The translations under genes were made by a program, and so were the position numbers. Positions 465 through 19,298 of a stretch of 19,424 nt of DNA are shown in pieces. This DNA comes from Armatimonadia bacterium (GTDB taxonomy: Bacteria > Armatimonadota > Zipacnadia > Zipacnadales > UBA11051): positions 1 through 19,424 of the forward strand of contig JBDKRC010000009.1 of the NCBI GenBank assembly GCA_039683575.1. Direction: 5' to 3'. The notes under the pieces are model-generated. The model did no database searches. It saw only the letters and a list, made by a program, of their open reading frames with translations, and was not told where the DNA came from. Position 1 is the first letter of the stretch. The number at the start of each line of letters is the position of its first letter.

Positions 465-543
465 CATCTTCTCAAACACAGCCCATGAGGCGAGCCCGGC
501 GGCCAGAGACCGCCCGTCACCCCGCCTCCCAATCACACCAAAG

Positions 544-5154: not shown

Positions 5155-6036
5155 CTATCGCTTGATAGGGACCTCGGTAGCCATGATCTGGGCAAGTGCG
5201 GCTTCCGCGTCTGCCCGCTGCGCGGGGGTAACCGGCTGGCTCTTCATGCGTATCAGGACATCCTGCATGCCCAGCGCCCCGAAGACCGCAAAGGCTGCGC
5301 CCCATACGTACGTGCGGGCGATGTGCTTCAGCGTACCCGCGCGTCCCACCAGTTGCGGGCCATGCATCCGGACCATGCGGCGCTGGTAGTTCCGCGCGCG
5401 CAGAAACTTCCGCACCGTGATGCCGCTCTCATCCACCAGGTACAGCGGCTTGGGGATGACGGCAAAGCCGGAGGAGCCGCAAGTTCGGCACCACAGGTCC
5501 CGGTCCTCGAAACCATGCAAGTAGGTCTCATCATACGGGTTGTTCCGGAACCACTCGGCCCGGCCCATGATCGTGGCATGCATGAAAGCGGGGCGGGCGA
5601 GGGTTTGAGGCGGCTCTATCGGGGCAGCGCTGCCCTCAACGCCATGAACGCCCTTGCGAGCGTCCATCGCATACATCAAAGTCCCAACGACGTCAACTTC
5701 GGGCCGCTGGTCCAGCAGGGCTACCTGCTCTTCCAACCTGCGAGGGTGCATCAGGTCGTCGGAGTCCATCCGGGCGATGTACTTGCCTTTGGTGACGCGG
5801 TGTAGCGCGTTCAGGCGCCCCGGCAGCTTGAGATTCTGCCCATCGCTGATGACACGGACGCGCGGATCATCTATGGAGCGCGCCACCTCCAGGGAACCAT
5901 CGGTAGAGCCGTCATCCATCAGGACGAGTTCCCAATCCTGGAACGTCTGCCCGAATACCGAACGAACCGAGTTAAGTAGGGTTGCCTCACTGTTATAGAA
6001 GGGAATACCCACGGATACGGTGGGACCTGTACTCAT
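5155..6036 (-). CDS. Glycosyltransferase family 2 (paralog A), 293 aa
   Basis: VSVGIPFYNSE, DDGSTD, RMDSDD, FED. Start moved to ATG 6036 (AGGA upstream) because the longer ORF overlaps the next gene and the paralogs start at the equivalent position. Confidence 0.92.
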   Translation of the reverse strand: MSTGPTVSVGIPFYNSEATLLNSVRSVFGQTFQDWELVLMDDGSTDGSLEVARSIDDPRVRVISDGQNLKLPGRLNALHRVTKGKYIARMDSDDLMHPRRLEEQVALLDQRPEVDVVGTLMYAMDARKGVHGVEGSAAPIEPPQTLARPAFMHATIMGRAEWFRNNPYDETYLHGFEDRDLWCRTCGSSGFAVIPKPLYLVDESGITVRKFLRARNYQRRMVRMHGPQLVGRAGTLKHIARTYVWGAAFAVFGALGMQDVLIRMKSQPVTPAQRADAEAALAQIMATEVPIKR

Positions 6037-6088
6037 GGCGATACTATCCTGTGCGTTTCGTAGGTTCCCGCCCCCGGCAGCCTGTCTT

Positions 6089-7009
6089 TCAGGCTGATGC
6101 CACTGCGCCAGCGCCCTTGAGCGGGACGGGCGTGTTGCGGATCCTCTCGATCGCGGCCGCCACATCAGCCTGCTCCTCCAGCGACAGCGGACGAGAGTTG
6201 TGGCGAACCAGGCGGTCCTCGATGTGAAACAGCCCGAAGGCCCTGTACAGGCCCGCATGGACATACGTGCGCGCGTAGCGAACTATGGTGCCGGGCCACC
6301 CCACTAGCTGCGGGCCATAGTCACGCAGCAGTCGCCGCCGGAAGACCATCCGGCGCAGGAACCCTCCGACCAGGTCCGGATTCGTCTCATCCGCATGAAC
6401 CGGGTACAGGTACAGCGCCTCGTTGATCTGCGTGAACTTCGAATGGCGGCAGGTGCGACACCACAGCTCGGAATCCTGCGCTCGCGCCCACGTCTCATCA
6501 TACGGGTTGTCCAGGAACCACTGCGGCCTGCCCATGATGGTCGGATGCATCAGCGCCACCTTGCCCAGCAACTCCGAAGGATGGAACTCGCGCCCCGCAA
6601 TGCCTCCCGCGCCGACGCCATACACCTCGTACGGCGCCGACATCATGTACATCAGTGAGCCCACCACATCCACCTCTGGATGCTCGGTAAGCACCGCGAT
6701 CTCTTTCTCAAGCCGCTGCGGGTGCATCATGTCGTCCGCGTCCATGCGAGCCACGTAGACTCCACGGGCCTCGCGGTGGATCTGATTCAGACGCGCCGCC
6801 AGCTTCAGGTTATTGCCGTCGGAAATGACCCGAACCCTCGGATCATCAATCGAGCGCGCGACCTCCAGCGAGTTGTCCGTCGAACCGTCGTCCAGAAGCA
6901 CCAGTTCCCAGTCCTGCACCGTCTGAGCGAAGATGGAGCGCACCGCGTCCAGCAGCGTGCTTTCGTTGTTGTAGAAGGGAAGGCCGATTGTCACCATCGG
7001 GGAGCCCAT
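6089..7009 (-). CDS. Glycosyltransferase family 2 (paralog B), 306 aa
   Basis: VTIGLPFYNNE, DDGSTD, RMDADD, AQD. AGGAG RBS upstream. Confidence 0.92.
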   Translation of the reverse strand: MGSPMVTIGLPFYNNESTLLDAVRSIFAQTVQDWELVLLDDGSTDNSLEVARSIDDPRVRVISDGNNLKLAARLNQIHREARGVYVARMDADDMMHPQRLEKEIAVLTEHPEVDVVGSLMYMMSAPYEVYGVGAGGIAGREFHPSELLGKVALMHPTIMGRPQWFLDNPYDETWARAQDSELWCRTCRHSKFTQINEALYLYPVHADETNPDLVGGFLRRMVFRRRLLRDYGPQLVGWPGTIVRYARTYVHAGLYRAFGLFHIEDRLVRHNSRPLSLEEQADVAAAIERIRNTPVPLKGAGAVASA

Positions 7010-7058: not shown

Positions 7059-7955
7059 CTATCTGGTCGGTATCTCGGTTGCCAGTAGCTTGGCCAGCCC
7101 TGCTTCCGCTTCCGCCTGCTGCTCCGCCGTCAGCGGCCGCGCCCAACGCTGCATGAGGCCGGTTGACTTCCTAATCGTGCCATACACCCGGTACGCGGCA
7201 TACTTGTAGTACATTTCCGCGAGGAGTTTCATCGTGCCAAGCTGGCCGACGAACTCCGGCCCGTACATCTTGATCAGGCGGCGGCGGAAGCCCAAGGCCC
7301 TGGCGCGCTTGGCCATCACATTCTCATCGGTGACCTCTACATAGTAGAGCGGCTCCTCAATCTGCGCGAACTTCGAGGTCCGGCACGTGCGGCACCAGAG
7401 CTCAGAGTCGATGAACCGCGCCCACGTCTCGTCGTACGGGTTCTGGCGGAACCACTCGGCCTTGCCGGTCGCCGTCCCATGAATGACAATCTGCGGCCCC
7501 AGCGTCTCGGCCGGCTTGAAGTCGCGGGTCGCCAGCACCGCCAGCGACCCAGTGCTGATCCCGTAGATGCGGTACTGGCTGTCGATCATGTACATCTGCG
7601 TCCCGACCACATCAACCTCAGGTCGCGCTTCGAGCAGTTCAATCTGCCGCTTCAGCCTGTCCGGATGCATCAGATCATCAGCGTCGAGGACCGCGATGTA
7701 CTTCCCGCGTGCTTCCCGGGTGATCTGGTTCCGCCTCGCTGCCACTTTGAGGTTGCGCCCGTCGCTGATGACCCGAATTCTCGGGTCCTGCACGGATTGG
7801 GCCACCTGCAGCGACCCGTCCGGCGAGCCATCATCCGCCAGGATCATCTCCCAATCCTCAAGGCTCTGCGCCAGCACCGAGCGGATGGTATTCAGCAATG
7901 TGCGTTCGTTGTTATAGAAGGGAACTGCAACTGTGACCAGGGGAGTTTCAGACAT
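7059..7955 (-). CDS. Glycosyltransferase family 2 (paralog C), 298 aa
   Basis: VTVAVPFYNNE, DDGSPD, VLDADD, FID. Start moved to ATG 7955 (GAAGGA upstream). Confidence 0.92.
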   Translation of the reverse strand: MSETPLVTVAVPFYNNERTLLNTIRSVLAQSLEDWEMILADDGSPDGSLQVAQSVQDPRIRVISDGRNLKVAARRNQITREARGKYIAVLDADDLMHPDRLKRQIELLEARPEVDVVGTQMYMIDSQYRIYGISTGSLAVLATRDFKPAETLGPQIVIHGTATGKAEWFRQNPYDETWARFIDSELWCRTCRTSKFAQIEEPLYYVEVTDENVMAKRARALGFRRRLIKMYGPEFVGQLGTMKLLAEMYYKYAAYRVYGTIRKSTGLMQRWARPLTAEQQAEAEAGLAKLLATEIPTR

Positions 7956-8020
7956 GAACTTGGTCCTTCCGGTGCTGCATGCGGCGCTGCAAATACTCAA
8001 CCTGAGACTAGGTTGCATCG

Positions 8021-9256
8021 TCAACCTGAGACTATGTCGCCAACCTCAATCTCGTAGAGCTGCCGGTGGCCCTCGTGCATCGAGTCAAAGCAGATCTTCG
8101 TGCCATCGCGGCTCCAGCGCGGGTGCAGGTCGCAGCGGATCTCGCCCTGAAGACCAGGCGGTGAGTAGAAGCCCCCAACATCAACCCGCTCACCCGTCTG
8201 CAGGTTGTACAGTATGATCGTCCGCAGGTGCCGCGCTCCCCGCGGATAAGTATCCGTGAGCAGGAACCGCCGGTCGGGCGAATAGGTGCAATGCCCGTCA
8301 CAGTCCAGCAGCCCCTCCCCTACTACCTCGACCTCGCGGCTCTGGTCCGTGAACAGGAAGTAACGGTTCCCCACCCCACGCTGTCGTGCCCAGGCCAACA
8401 GGCGCCGGTCATCCAGCCAGTCAAAATGGGATGTCATGTCGTCCGGGTTCAGCATGTACACATCCGAGCCATCCGGACGCGCCGTGAACATCCGCGTGCT
8501 CTGGGCGCGGAGGGCCGCCGATATCGCCCCGCCCTTGAGCAGCCGCTTCACGCCTCGCGCCAAGCCGAGCGCGCTCATGTCGCGGTGCTGCCAGCGGTGC
8601 AAGAAGACGAAGCGGCTGTCGTCGGTCGAGAACTGCAGGTGGTTGAACCGGTGCTTCGCCTGCCCCATGTTGCTGGTGGGCTCCAGGGCAGCGATCTGCG
8701 CCACTGTGACGATCAGCTCATAGTCACCGGTTGCCAGATCCATCCGGTAGATGCCGTCGCCGGCAGGCCGCAATTCGCTCGCAAACGGGTCTGGGATACC
8801 GTTGTACCCATAGCCGGGTCGACAGTCGTGCAGTCGTGAGAAATTGAGCGTCACAGCCTGCGTGCCGTCATGGCTCACGGCATAGATCGGCAGCGGTAGC
8901 AGCCGCCGGTCACCGCTGTCCAGATCGTGGATGCAGGCGGCGTACCTGTCGCCCTCGCGCACATTATAGATGATCCTGCGCCCGTTGCCACCCGGCAGCC
9001 ACTGCAGATGGGTCCCCTGCTGCCAGTTGAAGGCCCGCGTCTCACCCACCGGCTGGAACTCGCCGTCCCCCTGCAGGTCAATGAACCCAATCCGCGCGAC
9101 ATCATCGGCAGACGGCGGACGCTCCATGAAGTCCGTTTCCAGCGCCAGTACATAACGTCCTGACTCGTCATACGGACATTTGTCGTAGTACCCAAAATAG
9201 TGATGGCCGGGCTGATGGGTGAGAGCGCGACACTCGGCTATGCACCAACTGCTCAT
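8021..9256 (-). CDS. Beta-propeller protein, TolB-like / oligogalacturonate lyase (PL22)-like, 411 aa, no signal peptide
   Basis: Repeated propeller-turn motifs (SHDG, STDD, SPDR, SRDG), HHYFGYYD N-terminus, DLHPRWSRDG..ICFDS...RQLY C-terminus. Start moved to ATG 9256 (GAGGA upstream). Confidence 0.7.
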   Translation of the reverse strand: MSSWCIAECRALTHQPGHHYFGYYDKCPYDESGRYVLALETDFMERPPSADDVARIGFIDLQGDGEFQPVGETRAFNWQQGTHLQWLPGGNGRRIIYNVREGDRYAACIHDLDSGDRRLLPLPIYAVSHDGTQAVTLNFSRLHDCRPGYGYNGIPDPFASELRPAGDGIYRMDLATGDYELIVTVAQIAALEPTSNMGQAKHRFNHLQFSTDDSRFVFLHRWQHRDMSALGLARGVKRLLKGGAISAALRAQSTRMFTARPDGSDVYMLNPDDMTSHFDWLDDRRLLAWARQRGVGNRYFLFTDQSREVEVVGEGLLDCDGHCTYSPDRRFLLTDTYPRGARHLRTIILYNLQTGERVDVGGFYSPPGLQGEIRCDLHPRWSRDGTKICFDSMHEGHRQLYEIEVGDIVSG

Positions 9257-9420
9257 CGTGAAATCCTCTGCCTGCTTCTGATCCAGCCCTTCTGGCCCTG
9301 ACTGGCGAGCCCAAGAGCAAAGATGCCCACCACTCTTTATCCTGGTGAGCGTTGCCAATGAACCCACTACACCGCCTTGGCACGCGGCACAGACTGTGCT
9401 ACCGACCACCAAACCGCCTG

Positions 9421-10875
9421 TCAATGCTCAGAGCTGGCCTGCTCCTCTTCCGCATAGTCCATGAACATACCGTGCCGGTATGCCCAGCCCAATGTCAGCA
9501 GCACCACGAGAAGCACGAAAGTCATGGCAGCGCTCTTTACCGAGGACGGCCCGGACTTCTCCTCTGGCGCAACCGCAGGGTCGAGGACCGAAAAGCTCTC
9601 GCTGCTGTTCCTCTGCACCTCTATCTCCGCCAGTTGCAGTTGCTTGGCCAATTCACCAATAGTCTCGCTCTGAATCTTCTGCGTGCGGCTGAGATTCACA
9701 TATTCCCGCGCCACCGGAGGCAAGTTCCGCAGTTGGCTCTCTGATTTGGCGATATTCTCGGCGATCTGCGTCTGTCGTGCCTTCGCTCCCGCGAGTTGCA
9801 CCTCCAGACGCGTCACATCCTCCAGTAGCCCGTCGTAAAGCGGGTTCGGCTGGCGCGTGACCTGCTGCAGAACATCGGCGCTCAGGTGCTCCAACTGCTT
9901 CTCGGTCTGGTTTATCTCTGACTGAATGACCACGACATCAGGATGCTGTGCTGACTTGCCTTCAGCCATCTGGCTGGACAGTTCGCTCTTGTACCTCGCG
10001 AGTTGACCCTCAAGCGAGACAATCATCGGGTTGCGCTGCGTCACCTGCTGCGCAATCCGGTCAGCATCCTCGTGGCGCAAGCGCTTGCGGCTCACTTCGA
10101 GGGAACTCGTCGCCTGCGCCGCCTCCTGCTTCGCCTTCGCGTATTCACTCGTTGCATCCCTGGCGGCGGCCACCAGGACGGTAGCCTTGGCTTCCGGGTC
10201 CAGAAGCAGGTACTGGCTCTGCAACTGCTGCAACTGCATTTCCGTCTCGTCAAGCTTGGCCTGGACCTCATCCACACGCTTCTGAATGAACTCCCGCGTA
10301 CTCGTTGCGCTCTTCACCTTCGTGCCGACCAGATACTCATCAAGGGCTGCCATGTAGTCGTTGGCAATCTGGGCGCACATCTGCTTGGCTTCTGCGGTCG
10401 TGAAGGGTCCGGTCTGCCCGGTCCACATCGCCAGCCTGCTCGGGCCAGCCAGCTCGACTCCGGTCTTGAGCCCGGTGCCGGCCCGCAGTGCCCGCTGCCC
10501 CACGGCCTCCACGGTGGTGGCCTTCCCCAGCCAGTCGATAGCCTTCTCGTGGCTTACGCCCAGCCGTTCCTCCAGCTTTGTCTTGCGCAGGACAACAGCC
10601 CTGATGCGCCGGCTCTGAACCACCTGCTGCATCCGCGTCAGGGAGTTGTCATCGCTGGTGAGACCCGCCAGGGCCAGCCCGCCGATAGTACCAGAGGGCA
10701 GCCTGGCTTCACTGGTGACGATAACGGTACTGGCTGCGTAGGTGCGGGGCACGAAGACATACACGTAGATGCCAACGGCTGCTGATCCCAAAAAGGCCAA
10801 CAAGACAATCCGCGGCCACGTCAGCAGATCCAGGAGAGACATCAACGGTCCAGTCGTTGGTTCTGATTTGTGCAT
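9421..10875 (-). CDS. Polysaccharide co-polymerase / chain-length determinant (GumC/Wzc periplasmic-type) without a tyrosine-kinase domain
   Basis: N-terminal TM followed by PRTYAAST, long coiled coil, HPDVV, then VLDPAVAPEEKSGP before a second TM and a short tail. Start ATG 10875 (AAAGGA upstream); alternative ATG 10842. Confidence 0.85.
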   Translation of the reverse strand: MHKSEPTTGPLMSLLDLLTWPRIVLLAFLGSAAVGIYVYVFVPRTYAASTVIVTSEARLPSGTIGGLALAGLTSDDNSLTRMQQVVQSRRIRAVVLRKTKLEERLGVSHEKAIDWLGKATTVEAVGQRALRAGTGLKTGVELAGPSRLAMWTGQTGPFTTAEAKQMCAQIANDYMAALDEYLVGTKVKSATSTREFIQKRVDEVQAKLDETEMQLQQLQSQYLLLDPEAKATVLVAAARDATSEYAKAKQEAAQATSSLEVSRKRLRHEDADRIAQQVTQRNPMIVSLEGQLARYKSELSSQMAEGKSAQHPDVVVIQSEINQTEKQLEHLSADVLQQVTRQPNPLYDGLLEDVTRLEVQLAGAKARQTQIAENIAKSESQLRNLPPVAREYVNLSRTQKIQSETIGELAKQLQLAEIEVQRNSSESFSVLDPAVAPEEKSGPSSVKSAAMTFVLLVVLLTLGWAYRHGMFMDYAEEEQASSEH

Positions 10876-11125
10876 CCAGTGGAAATCCTTTCCAACGATC
10901 CCGTACGGTTCATTCCCCGCCGCCCCATCTTCAGCCAAACACCCGCCGCAGATGGCGTGTTCCCCCCGTCTGGGCCCTGCCAACGTGGCTCCCTAACGCC
11001 GAAACAGCCTGCGCTCGCACCAGCACGCGCCAAAATGCCCTGTAGCGGGGTCATCCTCTGCGCCTTCGCGCACCACTTCCCCACTCAATTCGCCTTACCG
11101 ACGCCGATATCCTTGTTTGCGGGGA

Positions 11126-12058
11126 TCAAGAAGGGAGAAAAGAACGAACAGTCTGCTCGAGGCCTTCATCCATCTGGACCGCCGGCTCGTAACCGAGAGC
11201 GGCTCGAGCCGCCGAGATGTCCGCCAGTGAATGCTTCACATCGCCGACGCGAGCCGCTTCATAGACCGGCTCGATGTTCGTCCCGATGAGATCATTCAGT
11301 TTCCGCACCAACTGGTTGAGCGACATGCTGTCGCCACAGGCGATGTTGAAGGCCTGACCGGCGCCGTCGGTGGCCAGGGCAGCCTTGACGTTCGCCTGCA
11401 CCACGTTGTCCACATAGGTAAAGTCACGGCTCTGTTCACCGTCACCGTAGATGACAGGTCGTTCGCCCGCGAGTATGCGGGTGCAGAAGATGGGGATGAC
11501 GGCGGCATACTGAGACTTGGGGTCCTGGCGGGGGCCAAAAACGTTGAAGTAGCGCAGGCTCACCGTTTCCAGGCCATATGAGCCATAGAAAGCGCTGGCG
11601 TAGGCTTCCTGCGTCAGCTTGGTGGCGGCATACGGCGAGATCGGCATGGGCCGCATCGTCTCGACCTTGGGAAGCTGCGGGTTGCTGCCATACACCGACG
11701 AGGACGAGGCCTGCACCACTCGCTTCACCCCGGCGTCCTTCGCCGCGATCATCACGTTCAGCGTGCCGGTGCAGTTTGCCTCGTGGCTGCTGATCGGATC
11801 AGCCACTGACCGCGGAACCGACGGGATGGCCCCCTGGTGCAAAACGTAGTCCACGCCCTCAAACACGGGGCGGAGGGCTTCGAGATCACGGATGCTCAAC
11901 TCGAAGAACTTGACCTGATCCCGCACCTCGGCGATGTTCTCCAGCTTCCCCGTTGACAGGTTGTCGACTATCCGAACTTCGTCGCCACGCTTCAAAAGGT
12001 GCCTGACAATGTGGCTGCCTATGAAGCCTGCGCCACCTGTAACGAGAAAACATGCCAT
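11126..12058 (-). CDS. NAD-dependent epimerase, UDP-Glc/GlcNAc(A) 4-epimerase of WbpP/TviC type
   Basis: TGGAGFIGS, PSVPRSVADP, SSSSVYG, SPYAATK, LRYFNVFGPRQDP.SQYAAVIP, GDGEQSRDFTYV, GDVKHSLADIS. Confidence 0.92.
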   Translation of the reverse strand: MACFLVTGGAGFIGSHIVRHLLKRGDEVRIVDNLSTGKLENIAEVRDQVKFFELSIRDLEALRPVFEGVDYVLHQGAIPSVPRSVADPISSHEANCTGTLNVMIAAKDAGVKRVVQASSSSVYGSNPQLPKVETMRPMPISPYAATKLTQEAYASAFYGSYGLETVSLRYFNVFGPRQDPKSQYAAVIPIFCTRILAGERPVIYGDGEQSRDFTYVDNVVQANVKAALATDGAGQAFNIACGDSMSLNQLVRKLNDLIGTNIEPVYEAARVGDVKHSLADISAARAALGYEPAVQMDEGLEQTVRSFLPS

Positions 12059-12078
12059 TGAATCTTGCTCCAGTCTCG

Positions 12079-13752
12079 TCAGTCTGCGGGCGTATCGGAG
12101 AGACCCAATACACCGGCCCCGTTCACCGGGAAGTACATCCGCACCCGCAAGCCCTCGGCAGCGTACCGCGCCATGACCTGCTCGCAGTGCTTCTGCTCAA
12201 CAATCACCATGGCACAGCCGCCCAGGCCTGCCCCCGCCATCTGTGCCCCGAGCACCCCCGGCAAGCCGTATGCCAGGTCTACTATCCGGTCAATCTCGGG
12301 TACGCTGCACTCATAGCGCCCCGGTTGCCACTCCAATTGACAAGCCTCACGCACCGCCGGATCGTCCGATTGCAGGCCCTCGATCAACTCCCGCAGATGC
12401 TCGTCCGTCACCTGGTAATCCCACGGCAGCGGGTTCAGCGCCTCATCATGGGCAATCACGCGGTCGCCGTCGTGGGAGGCCCTGTAAAGCCGGTGCAGCG
12501 CGTCCACATCATGCCGCCTGAGGCAATCCGCAAATAGCCGGGACCGCCGGATCTCGGCCAGGCCGTATAGCAGCACATTGCGCACATAAAGCGGCTGCCC
12601 TACCGGCAGGTCATTGGCAAGAAGGTCCGCGATGCGCTTGTGGTCGAGCGTTGAGAGCCGGTCGAAGTACGTCGGGATGTCGTCGTAGGCAACCTGCTGC
12701 GGGATCTGCATCAGCATCCCATACAGGTCTCCGAGCGAAATGCGCAGCTTGTCGGTGTTGATGTCCCGCAGGTACTCAATGCGGTCAGCGTACTGCGGGA
12801 ACGTCAGCTTGAACAGTGACTGGGCGACGACGTAGGCCAGGACGCGGGCATTGAACTCCGCCCGCGCGCCCTGCATCTTCTTGGCCTCGATGCCAGAGTT
12901 GACGATGAGAATGCGGTAATCCGAGGGGAACGGCATGAACTGCTTGATGTGGAAGGGGAAGAAACTCATGTCGGCGACTTCCCCACGGCGCCCGAACCTG
13001 ATGGCTCCATGGTCGCCGCTACCGCCCCGCGTGCCGACGAACCATTCAGCTTCCCCGCAAAGGTCAACCAGCATCTGCGGCGCCACGGGCAGGTCATTGA
13101 CCTTGATACACGCCTTGGCGGTCGCCACGACCAGTGCCGATGAGGAGCTAAGGCCGCTGCCGATCGGCACGCTGCTATGCACCGTCATCCGCATGCCGCG
13201 AAGCTGCCGGTTCGGGAACGTGTTTTGCAACCGCAGAGTGCTCGCCTTGATGTAGTTCTCCCAGTCCCCGTCGTTGACCAGCGCGATGGTCTTGGGGCTG
13301 TTGATGCAGGTGAACCAGTCCTGAAGCTCAAGATTCCTGACCAGTTCTCCGATCGAGAACTCATTGTCCGCAAACCGGTCTGGCAGCGAGTTGGACAGTT
13401 CCACCACGTCATCCTGGCGCGGAGAGACGACGGCGATGCACTCGTCGTTGATCGCGATGACGTTGATGTCGCCACCACGGTGATCAACGTGCCGCCCCAT
13501 GAGGTTTATCCGCCCAGGCGACCGAACGATGAAGACGAGGTCCGTGCCCCCATAGTGTTGCTGATAGTGCTCGAGGGATATCAGGTACTGCTCGCGCTTT
13601 TCCTCCCTGATGAGGCTGTCCTGTCCGTATGTTACCTCAAGAAAGCGCTCCACCCTCGGATCGCGGTCGGAAAACAGCGCCGTCCACTCTGCAGCCGTAA
13701 ACAGCGACACTTCCGCCGTATCAGTTGTCTCCCACTTCGCTGTAGTACTCAC
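12079..13752 (-). CDS. GHMP-family sugar-1-kinase (galactokinase-like; possibly a uronokinase)
   Basis: SPGRINLMGRHVDH, PIGSGLSSS (GHMP ATP loop), YECSVPEID, GAQMAGAGLGGC. The GTG start overlaps the upstream gene by 32 nt. Confidence 0.85.
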   Translation of the reverse strand: MSTTAKWETTDTAEVSLFTAAEWTALFSDRDPRVERFLEVTYGQDSLIREEKREQYLISLEHYQQHYGGTDLVFIVRSPGRINLMGRHVDHRGGDINVIAINDECIAVVSPRQDDVVELSNSLPDRFADNEFSIGELVRNLELQDWFTCINSPKTIALVNDGDWENYIKASTLRLQNTFPNRQLRGMRMTVHSSVPIGSGLSSSSALVVATAKACIKVNDLPVAPQMLVDLCGEAEWFVGTRGGSGDHGAIRFGRRGEVADMSFFPFHIKQFMPFPSDYRILIVNSGIEAKKMQGARAEFNARVLAYVVAQSLFKLTFPQYADRIEYLRDINTDKLRISLGDLYGMLMQIPQQVAYDDIPTYFDRLSTLDHKRIADLLANDLPVGQPLYVRNVLLYGLAEIRRSRLFADCLRRHDVDALHRLYRASHDGDRVIAHDEALNPLPWDYQVTDEHLRELIEGLQSDDPAVREACQLEWQPGRYECSVPEIDRIVDLAYGLPGVLGAQMAGAGLGGCAMVIVEQKHCEQVMARYAAEGLRVRMYFPVNGAGVLGLSDTPAD

Positions 13753-14758
13753 GTATCTTCTGCAACTCCTCCAGGGTGTTGAACCCCATGCATGCCTGCG
13801 GATCGCTCAACTTCACTGTCTTCAGAGAGAAGCGTAGCCGACCATCGTCGCCACATTCCGAAGCCAGATACTTGATGCAATCCGTCAGGTATTCCTCGCC
13901 CTGTGCATTGGCCGGCTGCAAAGTCTCCAGTGCCTCGTACAGCGCTGTACTCTTGAAAATGTAGACCGAAAGATTGACCTCGTCGGTAGCCGCTTCCACC
14001 TCATGCGCCCGGATCGTTTGCTGGCGCCCCTCGCGGTGGACGGTGATCTCCGCTTTGGGCAAAAGCCCCTCCACTTCAGACGCAAGAAGAAGAGGCTCTA
14101 CCTCACTGCTGTCAGAGATCCGCTGCAAGATCCCCGGACAAGCCTTCTGCAGCTTGCTTTCCTTCGGGAAATGCGCCCTCATGCGCTCCAGAACCTGAAC
14201 CGTGGGCACGCTTGACCCCGAGGCCGCCATCTCCTCCAACTCCACCAGCAGCCTCGACAGCGCGATCTCCGCCGTCTCCACTATTGCTATGGGCTCGCCG
14301 CGCTCATTTTTGAGCACTCGGCCCGAACCCGGATTGTCCTGCTTGTCCCCGGTAAGAAACACCAAATCGGCGTTTTCTTCCCGCATCGCGGAAATAAGGT
14401 CGCTCACAACCTCGCCCCGCAGCACCTTATCGCCCGCCACCAGCAGCACCGCCCCCTGGTACTGCTGCTCCTGCAAAGGCTGTGCTCCGCAACGCGCCGC
14501 GTGCCCGGTCCCCTTCGGCTCGGGTTGGTAAGCAAACTCGACGTTGCTGCGCTTGCTCTCCACCTCTGCCCGCACCTGGTCCGCCAGATGCCCCACCACC
14601 ACAATATGCCTCGTCACGCCGCTCTGTTCATACACCTCCAGAGCACGGGAGATCGCCGGTACGCCCGCTATCTCGTAGCAGACCTTGTTCAGGTCGTCGG
14701 ATGGCATGCGGCTGCCACGACCTGCGGCCAGAACCACAGAGACGACTTCAGTTTCCAC
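13721..14758 (-). CDS. Sugar-1-phosphate nucleotidyltransferase, GlmU N-terminal-like, lacking the acetyltransferase beta-helix
   Basis: VVLAAGRGSRM..K, QPEPKGTGHA, AGD, GRV, IVE, EVN, NAQGEEYLTD, GFNTLEEL. Start moved to GTG 14758 (AGGAG upstream). Confidence 0.85.
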   Translation of the reverse strand: METEVVSVVLAAGRGSRMPSDDLNKVCYEIAGVPAISRALEVYEQSGVTRHIVVVGHLADQVRAEVESKRSNVEFAYQPEPKGTGHAARCGAQPLQEQQYQGAVLLVAGDKVLRGEVVSDLISAMREENADLVFLTGDKQDNPGSGRVLKNERGEPIAIVETAEIALSRLLVELEEMAASGSSVPTVQVLERMRAHFPKESKLQKACPGILQRISDSSEVEPLLLASEVEGLLPKAEITVHREGRQQTIRAHEVEAATDEVNLSVYIFKSTALYEALETLQPANAQGEEYLTDCIKYLASECGDDGRLRFSLKTVKLSDPQACMGFNTLEELQKIREYYSEVGDN

Positions 14759-14869
14759 TCGGCAGTGATCTCCTGGAGGGCATGGTACGGGAGTGCGCCA
14801 GACGGCGCCTCCGGGCAAGAGCCTGAAAGCGACTAAGGGGTGAAGAAAACCTACCCTCCCACGGCGGCA

Positions 14870-14899
14870 ATAATACCACCAGACAGACTGTAGCGTCAA
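14870..14899 (-). promoter_or_regulatory. Putative sigma70 promoter for the minus-strand polysaccharide operon
   Basis: Minus strand TTGACG (14899-14894), 18-nt spacer, TATTAT (14875-14870), preceded by TG-n (extended -10). Confidence 0.55.
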
Positions 14900-15015
14900 C
14901 TGCACACCAACGTCTGAGTATCTCTTGACACAATATACGCCCTAACCGAGCCCCCCTGCTCGCGAGGCTGTCCCGTACAATGATACTGCCGTCCTCGCCT
15001 ACAGATGCCATGATC

Positions 15016-15024
15016 TGCTATAAT
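15016..15024 (+). promoter_or_regulatory. Putative extended -10 promoter for the plus-strand SDR gene
   Basis: Perfect TGcTATAAT in a high-GC background, about 220 nt upstream of ATG 15247; no convincing -35. Confidence 0.5.
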
Positions 15025-15193
15025 CCATCCCCGCAACAACCATTCAGTCACTGCGTTGTCCAAAACACACCGAGGACAGAAAAAACCTTCGCCAACAAGA
15101 GGTCATGGTCGACACCCCGGGGAATAGCACGTGGGCGTAGTCCCCAGTGGTTGAGGGTTAGGCGTCCAGCCACACGACGTAAAGGAGACGAGA

Positions 15194-15259
15194 ATGCTTT
15201 TTGTAGTAGAAGACGTCGTACAATCAGCCCGAAAGGAGTACGTGCCATGCATGCTCTAG
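15194..15259 (+). CDS. Candidate 21-aa leader peptide (MLFVVEDVVQSARKEYVPCML)
   Basis: AAAGGAG at 15181-15187, 6 nt before ATG 15194. The ORF runs over the RBS and start of the next gene and stops at TAG 15259. Confidence 0.3.
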   Translation: MLFVVEDVVQSARKEYVPCML

Positions 15260-16248
15260 TGACCGGCGGAGCAGGCTTCATCGGCTCGCATCTGGTCCGA
15301 GAACTGCTCAAGCGCGACTACTCCGTGACCGTTGTGGACAATCTGGTCACCGGTTCGATGCGGAACATCGAGGATTTGCTTTCCGTATCCGGGTTTGATT
15401 TCGTTGAAGCCGACATCTGCCAGCGCGAACTGCTCGCGCCCCTAATGAAGAAATCCCACTACTGCTATCATCTCGCTGCGGCGGTAGGGGTCAAGCGCAT
15501 TGTAGACGAGCCCCTCGCCTCTCTCGAAGCTCTCGTCCATGGCACTTCCTCCGTACTCGAGGCCGCCAACACCTACCGGGTGCCAATCTTCCTGGCCTCG
15601 ACGTCGGAAGTCTACGGAAAGCATGGCGCCCACTCCCTCGCCGAGGAATGTGCCAGCGTCATCGGCCCCGTCATGAAGTGGCGCTGGCTATACGCCTGCT
15701 CCAAGATGCTGGACGAGTTCTGGGCTCTCGCCTACCACCACGAGCGAAGTCTGCCGGTAATCGTCTCCCGGCTCTTCAACGTCAGCGGCCCCCGTCAGAC
15801 CGGCCGCTGGGGCATGGTTGTCCCCACCTTCGTACAACAGGCGCTCGACAACAAGCCGGTCACCGTTTACGGTGACGGCGAGCAGAGGCGCTGCTTCCTC
15901 CACGTGAGTGACTGCGTCGAGTCCATCATGCGCCTGACGACCAATCCCGACGCCGTCGGCGAGATCGTCAACATCGGCAATGCGAACGAGTTGAGCATCA
16001 ACCAGCTCGCCCAGCGCGTCATCGACCTTGTCCCCGGCACAACCTCCGAGATCACCCACATCAGCTACGAGGACGCCTACGGCCAGGGCTTCGAGGACAT
16101 GCTCCAGCGCAGGCCAGACGCCTCGCTCCTCACCGAGCTGACCGGCTTCCAGCCGCAGATGACCATAGATCAGATCATCACCGACGTCATGGACTACATC
16201 AAGAGCGGCCCTGCAGCAGCCGCGTCCGATGCCCGCCGCGCCGGTTAA
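15247..16248 (+). CDS. NAD-dependent epimerase/dehydratase, UDP-glucuronate decarboxylase (Uxs/ArnA C-terminal)-like, 333 aa
   Basis: VTGGAGFIGSHL, HLAAAVGV, ASTSEVYGK, RWLYACSK (YxxxK), RLFNVSGPRQ, GDGEQRRCF. Start moved to ATG 15247 (AAAGGAG upstream). Exact activity uncertain. Confidence 0.85.
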   Translation: MHALVTGGAGFIGSHLVRELLKRDYSVTVVDNLVTGSMRNIEDLLSVSGFDFVEADICQRELLAPLMKKSHYCYHLAAAVGVKRIVDEPLASLEALVHGTSSVLEAANTYRVPIFLASTSEVYGKHGAHSLAEECASVIGPVMKWRWLYACSKMLDEFWALAYHHERSLPVIVSRLFNVSGPRQTGRWGMVVPTFVQQALDNKPVTVYGDGEQRRCFLHVSDCVESIMRLTTNPDAVGEIVNIGNANELSINQLAQRVIDLVPGTTSEITHISYEDAYGQGFEDMLQRRPDASLLTELTGFQPQMTIDQIITDVMDYIKSGPAAAASDARRAG

Positions 16249-16276
16249 CCGAGCTCTGTAAGCAACAGACCTCTCG

Positions 16277-16306
16277 ACGGCGGCTCTCTCCAGAGAGCCG
16301 CCGTTT
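16277..16306 (+). terminator. Intrinsic terminator of the plus-strand SDR gene
   Basis: ACGGCGGCTCTC-tcca-GAGAGCCGCCGT-TT, perfect 12-bp stem. Confidence 0.65.
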
Positions 16307-16329
16307 GCCGTTCTGGCCCCTCGTGCGCT

Positions 16330-16353
16330 GTGGGAGCGGTCTCCAGACCGCGA
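16330..16353 (+). repeat. GTGG/GTAG-family REP-like element
   Basis: GTGG-GA-GCGGTCT-cc-AGACCGC-GA: tetranucleotide head, GA spacer, GC-rich palindrome, trailing GA; extragenic. Confidence 0.6.
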
Positions 16354-16381
16354 CTGTGCCTGCGGGGCCCTCGCCTTCCGC

Positions 16382-16423
16382 AAACGAAAACGGGGAGAGC
16401 CTGCCTCAGCCGGCTCTCCCCGT
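16382..16423 (-). terminator. Intrinsic terminator of the SLBB export gene
   Basis: 12-bp stem ACGGGGAGAGCC/GGCTCTCCCCGT (16390-16423), 10-nt loop, followed on the minus strand by TTTCGTTT. Confidence 0.7.
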
Positions 16424-16456
16424 CGTTTCTGCGGTATGCTATGGCGTCAGGGTCGC

Positions 16457-19192
16457 CTAGAAGATCAGCGCCGCCGCTGCCAGACTGACAATGTCGCGCA
16501 GGATACTGGTCGATGCGGTCTTCACACGCTTGAACATGTGCTCCGACGGCACGATCAGCACATCTCCGGCCTCAATCAGAGTGTCCTTGGTCGCCGGCGA
16601 AGCCGAGCCGTTGGCACGCACCACAATCATCCGGCCAAGATTGGCGTCAGGCGTAGGCCCGCCAGCCTCTTTGACCAGGTCCAGAGGGTATCCGGCCATG
16701 GACTGCAGAGCCCCCGGTGAGTTCACGCTGCCGATAACCGTGACGAAATCAACCTTCTTCGGAATCCGCACGATGTCGCCGCGATGCAGCTCCAGGTTGC
16801 CCTCCCGCCCCTTTGACGCCATGAGCTTCGCGCCATCAATCGGCACCGCGTTGATCCACTGCCCGACGCTCAGCATCCGCGGCGGCGTCACCAGCACCGC
16901 GCCATCCTGGGTTCCCAGGAGCTTGGAGACCTGCCGGCCAACCTGCTGGCCCATTATGTCCTGCTGCTGCGAGGTGGACAGCACCGATCCCGACGCGCCG
17001 GGAACTTCCCGGTTCAACATCGCCAGGACCTGATTCAGATCCGCCATCCGGTCCTTCGACACCAATTCGGTCCTGACGCGGTAGACGACAATCCCCTTCG
17101 GGTTGGCATCTTCCATCAGCCCGTCAGCACGCTGGATCAGGTCGTAGACGGTATCTCCCTCGCGCTTCCCCGGCTCTCCGAGGTTCAGCGCATAGCTTCC
17201 TGGCTTGACGACTCGGCCCTCGATAGCGGCCACCGGCGGCACCGTTGTAAAGTCAGTTGCGCCAATGACGCCCAGACGGTCGTCGTCCTTGAGCAGGATG
17301 TCAGGCTCCACGCTAACCCCTGTCGCCGTCGGCTTCACAGCCAGCAACTGGCTGCTGCTAGCGCCTGAGAAGCGCCCCGGCGTGTACTGCACCGAACTGC
17401 CCGCGTCCGGCCGCAGACCGCCCGAGGCCATGATCGCGTCGGAGGCCTTCATGCCCTCATACCGCGCATAGCTCCCCGGTGACCGCACGAACCCATCCAC
17501 ATGGACCAGGCTATCCTCAACCACGCTGCTTCTGGGCAGAACATTGAGCGTGTCGCCGCGCTGCAGGACCACATTCGCCTCAGCCACGCCTCGCGCTGCG
17601 TCCACCAGGTTCAGCGGGATGATCTGCAAGCGCTGGTCGGGCCGCACCCGCAGAAGCTCAGCGCGCTCCGTGAGGGCGCCCGGCAGCAGATCGCCAGCCA
17701 GCAGAACCAGTTCCTGAACCGTCATCTTCTCCACAAACGGGTACTCGCCCGGCTTGCGGACCTGGCCTGTGATGCTGACCACTGCCGAACTCAGCACCTC
17801 ATCCTTCAGATAGACCGTGACGATGTCCCGCGGCTGCAGAGTCCGGTCATCCTTGCCCGAAAGCGCGTCCTGCAGGTTGAACGGGATCAGTTCATACTCA
17901 AACTTATCGTTGAGCCGCTGGATCGTCGCATGCTGGATGTGCGCCTTGTCCGTCGGCCCCTGGGCAAGCTCCACCAGCTTGCGCACCGTCAGGCCGGGCG
18001 TCACCTGGTACACCCCGGGCCTCCGTACTGGCCCGCGCAGCTCAACCGTATTCGCCAGATCTTCCACCAGCGTAGCCACATTCACCAGATCGCCGTCGGC
18101 CAGGGCCAGCTTGCCCCGCTCCGCCGACGTGCTCGCATCCGCCTGCAGCATCAGGTTCCACATCCGCTGCTGGTCCGGTCGCCAGATCTCCACCGACTTG
18201 GCATACGCATCGCGCCTGAACCCCGAGGCCATGTCAATCGCGTCCTGCAGGGTCGCGCCGTCCAGCAGCTCATACCGCGCCGGACGCCGCACTGCCCCGG
18301 CCACGCCGATCTCGATCCCGGCCGGCGGCACAAAGACCGTATCCCCCGCCTGCAGCAGCGTATCGGCATCACGCTTGCCGTACATCAGGAATTGATACAG
18401 GTCCACGACACGATCCTGCTGCCCATTGCGCAGCAGCCGAATCTTGCGGTATGACCCCGTATCCGACGGCCCACCGGCAGCGTATAGCGCCGCAAACACC
18501 GTAGCATTCCCCGGAAGCGTGAACTTCCCGGGCTGCATCACATCGCCAATCACGTATGCATCGGTCACACGCGGCCGCACCAACTCCAGCACGATCCGCG
18601 GCTGTGCATAGAACTTCGTGGCTTGCGTAGCGATCAGGTCCTGAACCTCGGCCAGCGTCTTGCCTGAGACTGTGACCTTCCCGAGCACCGGCAGCGTAAT
18701 ATACCCATCGGCGGCCACGAGGGCCTCGACGGTGGCATGCTGCCGGTTCTGGCTCCAGATCTCAACATGCAGCCGGTCCGCCGGCCCGATCAGGTAATCT
18801 GGGGAGACTGGAATATTGGCCAGCGGGCTGCCAAGCGGCTCGCGCACGTCCTGCGGCTGTTCGGTCGGCATCGGTATGATCCGGTTGCCCGCGAACACCT
18901 CCGCGCCGAACCGGACCAGACCCGTGTACAGCGCCGCCGCGCTGGCCGGTGTAGCCGCCGCCTGCGGAGGTGCCTGCGTCTGGGCTTCCGGCGGCTGCAC
19001 CGTCGGCGCGCCCAGCTCCGGAGTCGGATTCGGCACCGGGATCAAGTTGACGCCATTGTCAGGCCCAATGACCTTGCCGGCGGGCGGCTGAGCAGGCGGC
19101 GCGGGCGCTGTCTGAGACAGAGCCACCACCGGAATGAGCGCGAGCAGCAGGATCATTACGCGGCCAAAAGCCGGCCCGTTAGCACGAACCAT
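16457..19192 (-). CDS. Polysaccharide export protein with Poly_export domain and about 7 SLBB repeats (long OPX, KpsD/OtnA-like), 911 aa
   Basis: Signal-like N-terminus without lipobox Cys; DYLIGPADRL...DGYITLPVLG..GKT; seven V.G.V..PG-type repeats; C-terminal amphipathic helix. Start ATG 19192 (GGAGG upstream). Confidence 0.92.
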   Translation of the reverse strand: MVRANGPAFGRVMILLLALIPVVALSQTAPAPPAQPPAGKVIGPDNGVNLIPVPNPTPELGAPTVQPPEAQTQAPPQAAATPASAAALYTGLVRFGAEVFAGNRIIPMPTEQPQDVREPLGSPLANIPVSPDYLIGPADRLHVEIWSQNRQHATVEALVAADGYITLPVLGKVTVSGKTLAEVQDLIATQATKFYAQPRIVLELVRPRVTDAYVIGDVMQPGKFTLPGNATVFAALYAAGGPSDTGSYRKIRLLRNGQQDRVVDLYQFLMYGKRDADTLLQAGDTVFVPPAGIEIGVAGAVRRPARYELLDGATLQDAIDMASGFRRDAYAKSVEIWRPDQQRMWNLMLQADASTSAERGKLALADGDLVNVATLVEDLANTVELRGPVRRPGVYQVTPGLTVRKLVELAQGPTDKAHIQHATIQRLNDKFEYELIPFNLQDALSGKDDRTLQPRDIVTVYLKDEVLSSAVVSITGQVRKPGEYPFVEKMTVQELVLLAGDLLPGALTERAELLRVRPDQRLQIIPLNLVDAARGVAEANVVLQRGDTLNVLPRSSVVEDSLVHVDGFVRSPGSYARYEGMKASDAIMASGGLRPDAGSSVQYTPGRFSGASSSQLLAVKPTATGVSVEPDILLKDDDRLGVIGATDFTTVPPVAAIEGRVVKPGSYALNLGEPGKREGDTVYDLIQRADGLMEDANPKGIVVYRVRTELVSKDRMADLNQVLAMLNREVPGASGSVLSTSQQQDIMGQQVGRQVSKLLGTQDGAVLVTPPRMLSVGQWINAVPIDGAKLMASKGREGNLELHRGDIVRIPKKVDFVTVIGSVNSPGALQSMAGYPLDLVKEAGGPTPDANLGRMIVVRANGSASPATKDTLIEAGDVLIVPSEHMFKRVKTASTSILRDIVSLAAAALIF

Positions 19193-19298
19193 TGACAATA
19201 CCTCCAACGGCTATGGCCCCAAGCGCGGGGCTCTTCATCAACAATAACACCACAGTGTAGCGTAAATTCGCTTTCGACACCACAGACACCTTTTCGCC

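Follow-up and report, generated by a model that had tools for sequence, protein, structure and literature searches.

A pair of overlapping genes was analyzed in a stretch of 19,424 nucleotides (nt) from contig JBDKRC010000009.1 of an Armatimonadia bacterium (assembly GCA_039683575.1), which is called the window below, and the pair is a secondarily split form, shared by a subclade, of an ancestral fusion between a GlmU-type nucleotidyltransferase and a galactokinase (GalK)-family GHMP kinase. That the two products work as a functionally coupled sugar-1-kinase and nucleoside diphosphate (NDP)-sugar pyrophosphorylase is strongly supported by their sequences, because the two parts are fused in relatives, and it is highly probable that a free sugar would be turned by them into a UDP-sugar in two steps. 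The explanation preferred as a whole, a split bifunctional salvage enzyme for a 2-acetamido sugar, is given about an even chance; the nature of the sugar taken by itself, an N-acetylhexosamine (HexNAc) type, is proposed tentatively and at slightly under even chances. Such a sugar would most likely be galacto- or gluco-configured, that is N-acetylgalactosamine (GalNAc), N-acetylglucosamine (GlcNAc) or a C6-modified or acidic derivative of these.

The window proteins were taken from a list of its open reading frames (ORFs) and were searched with the Pfam and NCBIfam profiles. On the minus strand the transferase ORF, which comes first, spans 13721-14905 and the kinase ORF spans 12079-13752, so that 32 nt (13721-13752) are shared by both. 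The transferase ORF aligns with the fused homologs from residue 50 onward, which corresponds to a GTG at 14758, and AGGAG is found 11 nt upstream of it; on these two grounds this GTG is the likely start of the transferase. The kinase start that gives the 32-nt overlap, a GTG at 13752, is preceded by GGAGGAG at 13 nt, and an alternative GTG at 13710 would turn the overlap into a gap of 10 nt.

Most of the 120 best kinase homologs are proteins of 860-930 amino acids (aa) which carry an NTP_transferase domain together with the GalK domains. For 88 related loci the gene content was extracted by script, and 8 of them (L024, L026, L027, L028, L033, L061, L072 and L076) gave no matching ORF. Among the 80 loci having a kinase ORF, 70 are fused with the transferase first, 5 carry the transferase as a gene of its own next to the kinase, and the remaining 5 are cut or contain the kinase only. 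L003 and L013 probably represent the same contig retrieved twice, which leaves four distinct split loci. An earlier interpretation of this DNA, made from its letters alone and called here the sequence-only reading, had taken the two genes for a kinase and a pyrophosphorylase which make an NDP-sugar directly from a free sugar, and had named a neighbourhood survey of homolog pairs as the check. The survey agrees with it, the pairing being conserved, and the fusion in 70 of the 80 loci together with the retained catalytic residues of both halves bears out the kinase plus pyrophosphorylase assignment. In the comparison of the fused homolog P0006 with the window, its residues 1-346 match the transferase (63% identity) and its residues 358-892 match the kinase (67%), and its linker of about 11 residues falls exactly at the gene overlap of the window.

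A tree was built from 68 kinase-domain rows of the family and was rooted on the GalK of the same genome. The clade to which the window belongs (SH-aLRT 100, stem length 0.61) has 16 rows, 9 of them split and 7 fused, and since the split rows fall in two groups there were at least two changes of state. A sequencing or assembly error as the cause of the split was considered and rejected, as the same 557-aa frame recurs in a 92%-identical protein from another source; two overlapping ORFs are likewise carried by the genomes G010 and G013, which also counts against such an error. The source genome has a second copy of the family on its contig C248 (L011:8065-10761), which is fused, 898 aa long and 46% identical in the kinase part, and which lies within another polysaccharide locus having family-2 and family-4 glycosyltransferases (GT2, GT4), a Wzx-like protein and an Acetyltransf_6 GNAT protein.

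The transferase half is matched by the Pfam families NTP_transf_3 (6.5e-17) and NTP_transferase, and its top NCBIfam families are all GlmU, with 147.3 bits against cut-offs of 367-725 and with positions 5-168 of the 488 profile positions covered. Its best PDB matches are GlmU N-domains, as in NCBIfam well ahead of all others, with Mycobacterium tuberculosis GlmU at 4e-23, and this alignment comes in two pieces (residues 56-215 and 308-350 of the transferase ORF), from which an insert of about 90 residues relative to GlmU follows; the insert is common to the fused homologs and is specific to the family. The motifs LAAGxGxRM, K, Q...GTGHA, GD, IVE, EVN and NAQGEEYLTD vary little or not at all among 18 family members, and from their counterparts in GlmU we take them to bind UTP, metal and sugar. 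The protein thus has the uridylyltransferase motifs of GlmU, lacks its acetyltransferase (left-handed beta-helix) domain and stays below the GlmU equivalog cut-off. MurU is a weak match (29 bits in NCBIfam; PDB 8hhd at 7.2e-06).

The kinase half belongs to the galactokinase branch of the GHMP kinases by its three domains, GalKase_gal_bdg (PF10509, 9.4e-14), GHMP_kinases_N (PF00288, 1.8e-14) and GHMP_kinases_C (PF08544, 7.5e-09), and by its GalK fold. The best PDB match by sequence is human GalNAc kinase (GALK2; 2a2c, 1.5e-28), followed by yeast Gal1p and human GALK1, and the AlphaFold2 model (pLDDT 86.9) finds 2a2c and 2aj4 at 2.1e-22 and 6gr2 at about 1e-22 as the top Foldseek matches. A weaker match is PDB 9ulx ('AbGHMP', 3.7e-09), and no paper on AbGHMP was found. 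Clustering within ordinary GalK had been set down in the sequence-only reading as an outcome that would overturn it; the kinase is distinct from ordinary GalK, with 129.8 bits on the galactokinase equivalog TIGR00131 (127.8 in the genome search) against a cut-off of 226.65, and the true GalK of the genome is a separate gene on contig C207 with 301.6 bits.

The sugar pocket was compared through the residues which we take to anchor the sugar in human GALK1, namely Arg37, Glu43, His44, Asp46, Gly183, Asp186 and Tyr236, where the 6q8z alignment confirmed the numbers of the first six. Five of the seven are kept, Arg37, His44, Asp46, Gly183 and Asp186 being Arg81, His88, Asp90, Gly244 and Asp247 in the window kinase, and in 121 family sequences they are conserved as R81 in 120 (with 1 gap), H88 in 120, D90 in 114, G244 in 119 and D247 in all 121. 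The two others are changed. The position of Glu43 is Arg87 in the window kinase, and in no family member does it hold an acidic residue (106 of 120 have Arg, 14 have Ser), and position 300, which corresponds to the Tyr, is Phe in the window as in GALK2 and Tyr in Gal1p, with Phe in 96 and Tyr in 24 family members. In addition, Arg242, which stands five residues ahead of the catalytic Asp, is shared by 119 of 121 sequences; GALK1 has Pro there, Gal1p has Asn and GALK2 has Glu. The sugar loops of the window kinase read GRHVDH and GTRGGSGDH against GEHIDY and GTEGGGMDQ in GALK2, so the closest homolog and the Phe are those of a GalNAc kinase and the sugar-loop residues are not. Because the catalytic pair of Arg81 and Asp247 is intact, the protein is predicted to be an active anomeric kinase, and by these residues its pocket should be unlike that of either galactokinase or GalNAc kinase.

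The pair stands in a run of minus-strand genes which is typical of a Wzy-type polysaccharide locus and is interrupted by one divergent plus-strand gene for a short-chain dehydrogenase/reductase (SDR). The features of the locus are as follows.

14870-14899, minus strand: sigma-70-like promoter candidate, TTGACG and TATTAT with an 18-nt spacer, 10 of 12 consensus matches, TG present.
13721-14758, minus strand: GlmU-type sugar-1-phosphate uridylyltransferase of 345 aa by domain and motif matches, upstream of the kinase.
12079-13752, minus strand: galactokinase-family GHMP anomeric sugar kinase of 557 aa, the C-terminal half of the ancestral fusion.
11126-12058, minus strand: WbpP/WbgU-type UDP-N-acetylhexosamine (or HexNAc-uronate) 4-epimerase, 20 nt downstream of the kinase.
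9421-10983, minus strand: protein of 520 aa without Pfam match, with hydrophobic segments starting at residues 47 and 478.
8021-9424, minus strand: soluble protein of 467 aa with neither Pfam match nor hydrophobic segment.
7059-8024, 6089-7009 and 5155-6264, minus strand: three GT2 glycosyltransferases (Glycos_transf_2 1.7e-34, 2.3e-29 and 3.9e-30).
3767-5131, minus strand: Wzy-type polymerase or O-antigen-ligase-like membrane protein (Wzy_C 2.3e-08; 9 hydrophobic segments).
2190-3731, minus strand: WecA/MraY-family polyprenyl-phosphate HexNAc-1-phosphate transferase domain fused with a GT4 N-domain (Glycos_transf_4 1.1e-21; Glyco_trans_4_4 2.1e-11).
15247-16248, plus strand: extended SDR, UXS/ArnA/Pal-like by PDB and NCBIfam matches, divergent from the transferase gene.
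16457-19207, minus strand: Wza-like outer-membrane polysaccharide export protein (Pfam Poly_export 1.4e-17, SLBB 3e-54).

By their Pfam matches the parts of a Wzy-dependent locus are present (Wzy_C, Poly_export/SLBB, three GT2 and Glycos_transf_4), and no Pfam match to a Wzx flippase family was found among the window proteins. The 520-aa product, with one hydrophobic segment near either end, would have a co-polymerase-like topology. The promoter candidate was judged by consensus match alone, in a scan of 10900-16500 which gave 3 such sites where 1.2 were expected. The description with which the sequence-only reading began, a GlmU-like nucleotidyltransferase and a GHMP kinase overlapping by 32 nt behind a promoter-like site and heading the operon, holds for the ORFs, the domains and the site. 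For the SDR the longest ORF extends upstream to 14980, an ATG, and has 89 extra Arg/Pro-rich residues without homology (14980-15246); as the Rossmann motif comes right behind the Met at 15247, the latter is its likely start. At the far end of the window two ORFs overlap on opposite strands, 544-1971 (plus, 475 aa) and 517-1314 (minus, 265 aa), and neither has a Pfam match.

In the window subclade the pair is part of a conserved module. An ortholog of the epimerase (64-81% identity) follows the fused or split gene at 13-80 nt in six genomes (G009, G010, G013, G020, G030 and G033), and a 53%-identical epimerase lies directly downstream of it in a metagenome-assembled genome (MAG) of Clostridia. 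Orthologs of the UXS-like SDR (68-75% identity) stand next to this gene and are divergent from it in G009, G010 and G013, the ortholog of G033 lies on another contig, and a 46%-identical SDR is found directly upstream in a Planctomycetota MAG. The epimerase is closest in the PDB to WbpP (1.2e-80) and WbgU (3e-77), with the UDP-glucuronic acid 4-epimerases far lower (6zl6 at 2.6e-37, MoeE5 at 2.9e-42). Its top NCBIfam name is TviC, at 254.5 bits and under the cut-off; TviC is a UDP-GlcNAcA 4-epimerase. It also keeps the Ser which, by a hand count with an assumed tag offset of 11, we take to be the Ser306 by which WbpP admits N-acetylated substrates. The SDR carries the STSEVYG and YxxxK motifs and matches human UXS1 (1.1e-45), Pal (3e-43) and ArnA (about 1e-28) in the PDB, all of its NCBIfam matches being below cut-off. 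A 4-epimerase and a UDP-glucuronic acid decarboxylase-like SDR had been named earlier as the flanks of the pair; both SDRs are real and the downstream one is a 4-epimerase, whereas the decarboxylase role of the UXS/ArnA-like one is not established and, with UXS1 and Pal scoring nearly equally, is only plausible beside a dehydratase alternative. In G033 the fused gene on contig C11 (L093, L094) lies within an exosortase (XrtA-like) exopolysaccharide (EPS) locus, which also contains the epimerase, a small GHMP kinase, a polyprenyl glycosylphosphotransferase, GT4 enzymes and two NDP-sugar dehydrogenases.

The mechanism that we propose from these observations would begin with the GalK-type GHMP kinase, which would phosphorylate the anomeric hydroxyl of a free sugar, presumably taken from the cytoplasm, with ATP. 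The GlmU-type transferase would then join the sugar-1-phosphate with UTP, its presumed nucleotide, to give the UDP-sugar. In most carriers both steps would be performed by a single polypeptide of about 900 aa with the transferase N-terminal; in the window subclade the linker has been split to leave two overlapping genes, probably translationally coupled, and the enzyme is tied to the downstream WbpP-type UDP-HexNAc 4-epimerase and often to the upstream UXS-like SDR. Here the module heads a Wzy-type operon having a WecA-family HexNAc-1-phosphate initiating transferase at its end, and the UDP-HexNAc formed would be interconverted by the epimerase for the polymer. The leaning towards a HexNAc comes from the nearest characterised relatives of the three module enzymes, which act on 2-acetamido sugars, from Phe300, which is as in GalNAc kinase, and from the WecA-family transferase that ends the operon.

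Several points weigh against this leaning. By Foldseek, GalNAc kinase, Gal1p and GALK1 score almost alike (~2e-22). The sugar loops have Arg or Ser in place of the Glu of GEHIDY and Arg in place of that of GTEGGG (119 of 121), which speaks against plain GalNAc as the substrate. A plain HexNAc kinase/pyrophosphorylase would moreover be redundant in a biosynthetic operon, since the genome makes UDP-GlcNAc de novo (its true GlmU scores 559.8 bits and its GlmM 560.5 bits) and UDP-GalNAc could be reached from it by the epimerase. The operon context informs the window subclade alone, as conserved neighbours are not found outside it, and every statement on the substrate is one that we infer.

Known systems of similar logic were set beside the pair. 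The FKP enzyme of Bacteroides fragilis resembles the family in having an N-terminal pyrophosphorylase and a C-terminal GHMP kinase in one polypeptide, and in converting a free sugar to an NDP-sugar in two steps as we read the family (PMC11982464, PMC6468028). The FKP-type architecture is found in 70 of the 80 related loci, the window pair itself being split. FKP differs in using GTP and L-fucose and in having a kinase of the fucokinase/HddA branch, where the family has one of the GalK branch with a GlmU-type transferase, and no Pfam or NCBIfam match to fucokinase/FKP domains was obtained for either window protein; the HddA-like kinases of the genome do match the FKP model. Zebrafish DrGKUP, a glucuronokinase that is putatively also a pyrophosphorylase for UDP-glucuronic acid, has an N-terminal bacterial-type nucleotidyltransferase (~260 aa) and a C-terminal GHMP sugar-1-kinase, its halves being separate genes in rare species, and its authors reported bacterial homologs of the transferase as single-domain proteins alone (PMC3938481). 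Like the family it has the transferase N-terminal to the GHMP kinase, and it salvages a free sugar to a UDP-sugar as we propose for the family; its kinase differs in being of the plant glucuronokinase type, 357 aa long and highly specific for glucuronic acid (GlcA), against 557 aa and a galactokinase signature in the window. The two were set apart by published description. Pseudomonas AmgK-MurU is likewise a short route, encoded by two genes, which leads from a free amino sugar to a UDP-sugar (PMC5371407). MurU differs in having neither the ~90-aa insert nor the GlmU-specific motifs of the transferase.

AmgK is not known to be a GHMP kinase. The plant galacturonic acid (GalA) kinase GalAK is a GalK-family kinase for an acidic sugar, and its partner, the UDP-sugar pyrophosphorylase USP, is a separate protein of another family. 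Human GALK2 (2a2c/2a2d) comes first among the matches of the window kinase by sequence and jointly first by fold, with Phe where galactokinases have Tyr, and together with UDP-HexNAc pyrophosphorylase it follows the same logic from GalNAc through GalNAc-1-phosphate to UDP-GalNAc; it differs in having only ~22% identity over the fold and in the acidic residues of GEHIDY and GTEGGG, which are Arg in the window kinase, and the human pyrophosphorylase is a separate, unrelated enzyme. The bifidobacterial lacto-N-biose/galacto-N-biose (LNB/GNB) triad consists of the kinase NahK, a uridylyltransferase and a UDP-HexNAc 4-epimerase. This triad is like the module in combining an anomeric HexNAc kinase, UDP-HexNAc formation and a HexNAc-capable 4-epimerase, and differs in its APH-type NahK, its GalT-type uridylyl exchange, its catabolic function and its place outside a polysaccharide operon.

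In the sequence-only reading the pair was suggested as a possible activator of a free uronic acid or another unusual sugar; for a uronic acid, it would salvage free GalA or GlcA to a UDP-uronate, and would thereby replace an absent Ugd and feed the epimerase and a UXS-like decarboxylase. The absence itself is confirmed for the window and extends to the whole 96.4%-complete genome, in which no NDP-sugar dehydrogenase was found (PF03721, 0 matches; TIGR03026, best score 23.6 bits). The genome nevertheless has enzymes that would need UDP-GlcA, namely the UXS-like SDR and an Arn-like operon, which leaves the source of the UDP-GlcA unexplained and gives the proposal its appeal. The operon lies on contig C123 (L099:4153-9134) and has an ArnB-like aminotransferase, an ArnC-like transferase, an ArnD-like deformylase, a separate ArnA-decarboxylase-like SDR and an ArnA-type formyltransferase (385.9 bits, above cut-off). 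The never-acidic position of Glu43 (Arg 106, Ser 14 of 120) and the near-invariant Arg242 of the second sugar loop would also suit an acidic sugar; in the plant GalA kinase an Ala reportedly stands at the Glu43 position, and the A41E exchange is said to inactivate the enzyme. All five genomes of family f1 that have an ortholog of the UXS-like SDR (G000, G009, G010, G013 and G014) are without the dehydrogenase. The expected anticorrelation of the gene family with ugd is, however, absent. Among 41 genomes of the order the family is present in 18 and a dehydrogenase above cut-off in 9 (both in 5, family alone in 13, dehydrogenase alone in 4, neither in 19), so that the dehydrogenase occurs in 5 of 18 with the family vs 4 of 23 without it; among 121 genomes sampled from the phylum, of which 37 have the family and 108 the dehydrogenase, the counts are 33 of 37 vs 75 of 84. 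The rarity of the dehydrogenase in the order of the window (above cut-off in 9 of 41 vs 106 of 121 in the phylum sample) looks like a lineage-wide loss. Of the 13 phylum-sample genomes without it, 8 belong to the order of the window and 1 to its class. In G033, moreover, a single EPS locus contains the fused gene with its epimerase and, some 10 kb away, a UDP-glucose dehydrogenase (TuaD-like) as well as a UDP-HexNAc dehydrogenase.

Assigning UDP-GlcA synthesis to the pair through the gap between Arn and Ugd was tried and failed, as 5 of the 9 Arn-positive, dehydrogenase-less genomes of the order are also without the family, which is therefore not a general source of UDP-GlcA. The genome has at least 9 GHMP sugar-kinase-like genes (the GalK, a GalK-like one on contig C47, one on C245, two copies of the family and four HddA-like), and together with the Arn counts these other kinases mean that the gap does not point to the pair in particular. 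The four HddA/fucokinase-like GHMP kinases, on contigs C5, C284, C110 and C199 (L103, L104, L106 and L107), score 180-205 bits on the HddA model (cut-off 600), and one of them adjoins an RmlD gene; as candidates for a glucuronokinase they are just as good as the pair. Myo-inositol oxygenase, which would supply free GlcA, gave no match in the genome, nor in the control genomes. The partner enzymes speak against the proposal too: the epimerase is WbpP/WbgU-like (1.2e-80) and unlike the UDP-GlcA 4-epimerases (2.6e-37, 2.9e-42), the transferase is GlmU-like and not USP- or GalU-like, and the UXS-like SDR is nearly as close to dehydratase-type Pal (3e-43) as to UXS (1.1e-45), while position 87 alternates between Arg and Ser among orthologs of one module. 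With relatives of HexNAc type and no dehydrogenase anticorrelation, the bypass of Ugd by uronic acid salvage is not specifically supported and is considered unlikely. Similarly improbable is its wider form, in which the family would be an anomeric kinase/uridylyltransferase for an acidic sugar, hexuronic or 2-acetamido-hexuronic (e.g. GalNAcA or GlcNAcA), and the module, in an order that mostly lacks the dehydrogenase, a dehydrogenase-independent route to a UDP-uronate; if this were true, the set of UXS-like SDR, transferase, kinase and WbpP/TviC-type epimerase would also yield decarboxylated products for surface polysaccharides.

A neutral sugar that does not make the normal C6 hydroxyl contact, or a common neutral one, may also be imagined as the substrate, such as L-arabinose, a 6-deoxy sugar, or galactose used independently of GalT. 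The loss of the Glu43 equivalent suits sugars without a C6 hydroxyl equally well, and plant arabinokinase has Gly at this position; the family is also stand-alone in many polysaccharide-degrading phyla, as the salvage of a common sugar predicts. Canonical GalK and GalT are already present in the genome, however, and contig C245 (L100:6038-7387) encodes a separate 449-aa GalK-family kinase (gal_kin 162.7 bits, under cut-off) whose sugar motif ARLDVMGGIADYSGS we take to be of the plant L-arabinokinase type. The partner epimerase is of HexNAc type, the transferase keeps the sugar-site residues of GlmU, and the GH127 beta-L-arabinofuranosidases, which would fit arabinose, make up 2 of 121 first neighbours and are not enriched. 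Such a substrate is given a somewhat lower probability than an acidic one. Very improbable, finally, is a role of the broad family in recycling a cell-wall amino sugar, N-acetylmuramic acid (MurNAc) or GlcNAc, as a GHMP/GlmU-type analogue of AmgK-MurU, with the window subclade being a derived copy for polysaccharide synthesis. A gene which is stand-alone, widespread and without conserved context would agree with it, as would the long stem branch (0.61) that sets the subclade apart, and the conserved Arg could pair with the lactyl carboxylate; but the GalK Asp binding O3/O4, which is kept in 114 of 120 sequences, would clash with a 3-O-lactyl group, and the tallies of neighbours have no link to peptidoglycan genes. 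The weak MurU matches (29 bits; 8hhd at 7.2e-06) are far exceeded by the GlmU score of 147 bits.

The preferred reading, the salvage of a 2-acetamido sugar by a bifunctional enzyme, concerns a family with at least 567 loci in species-representative genomes, distributed over Planctomycetota, Verrucomicrobiota, Lentisphaerota, Armatimonadota, Chloroflexota, Hydrogenedentota, Clostridia, Spirochaetes and others. One of its loci, L070, lies in the complete genome of a cultured Lentisphaerota strain. In the protein atlas the GHMP clusters come from Armatimonadota, Planctomycetota and Hydrogenedentota, and none of them has a name. Neither the 121 first nor the 93 second neighbours are enriched in any family of glycoside hydrolases, transporters or catabolic enzymes from which the sugar could be named; PF01370, the family of the extended SDRs, is found in 13 first and 3 second neighbours, out of 136 and 166 families overall. 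All-against-all clustering of 901 locus ORFs gave one recurrent neighbour cluster, the extended SDRs at 13 loci. Outside the window subclade the gene appears to stand alone and to be sufficient by itself. In the literature searched, which left most subscription journals outside its coverage, nothing was found on a bacterial fusion of GlmU-type and GalK-type parts or on bacterial uronic-acid kinases.

Few natural kinase/pyrophosphorylases like FKP are known, and such enzymes are the workhorses of chemoenzymatic nucleotide-sugar synthesis and of metabolic glycan labelling. The present family is large and pairs a GlmU-type transferase with a GalK-type kinase, and a characterised member was not found in the literature searched. 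As its pocket differs from those of galactokinase and GalNAc kinase, the family may activate a sugar for which there is no one-enzyme route. It would also show that environmental free sugars are fed straight into the surface polysaccharides of largely uncultured phyla.

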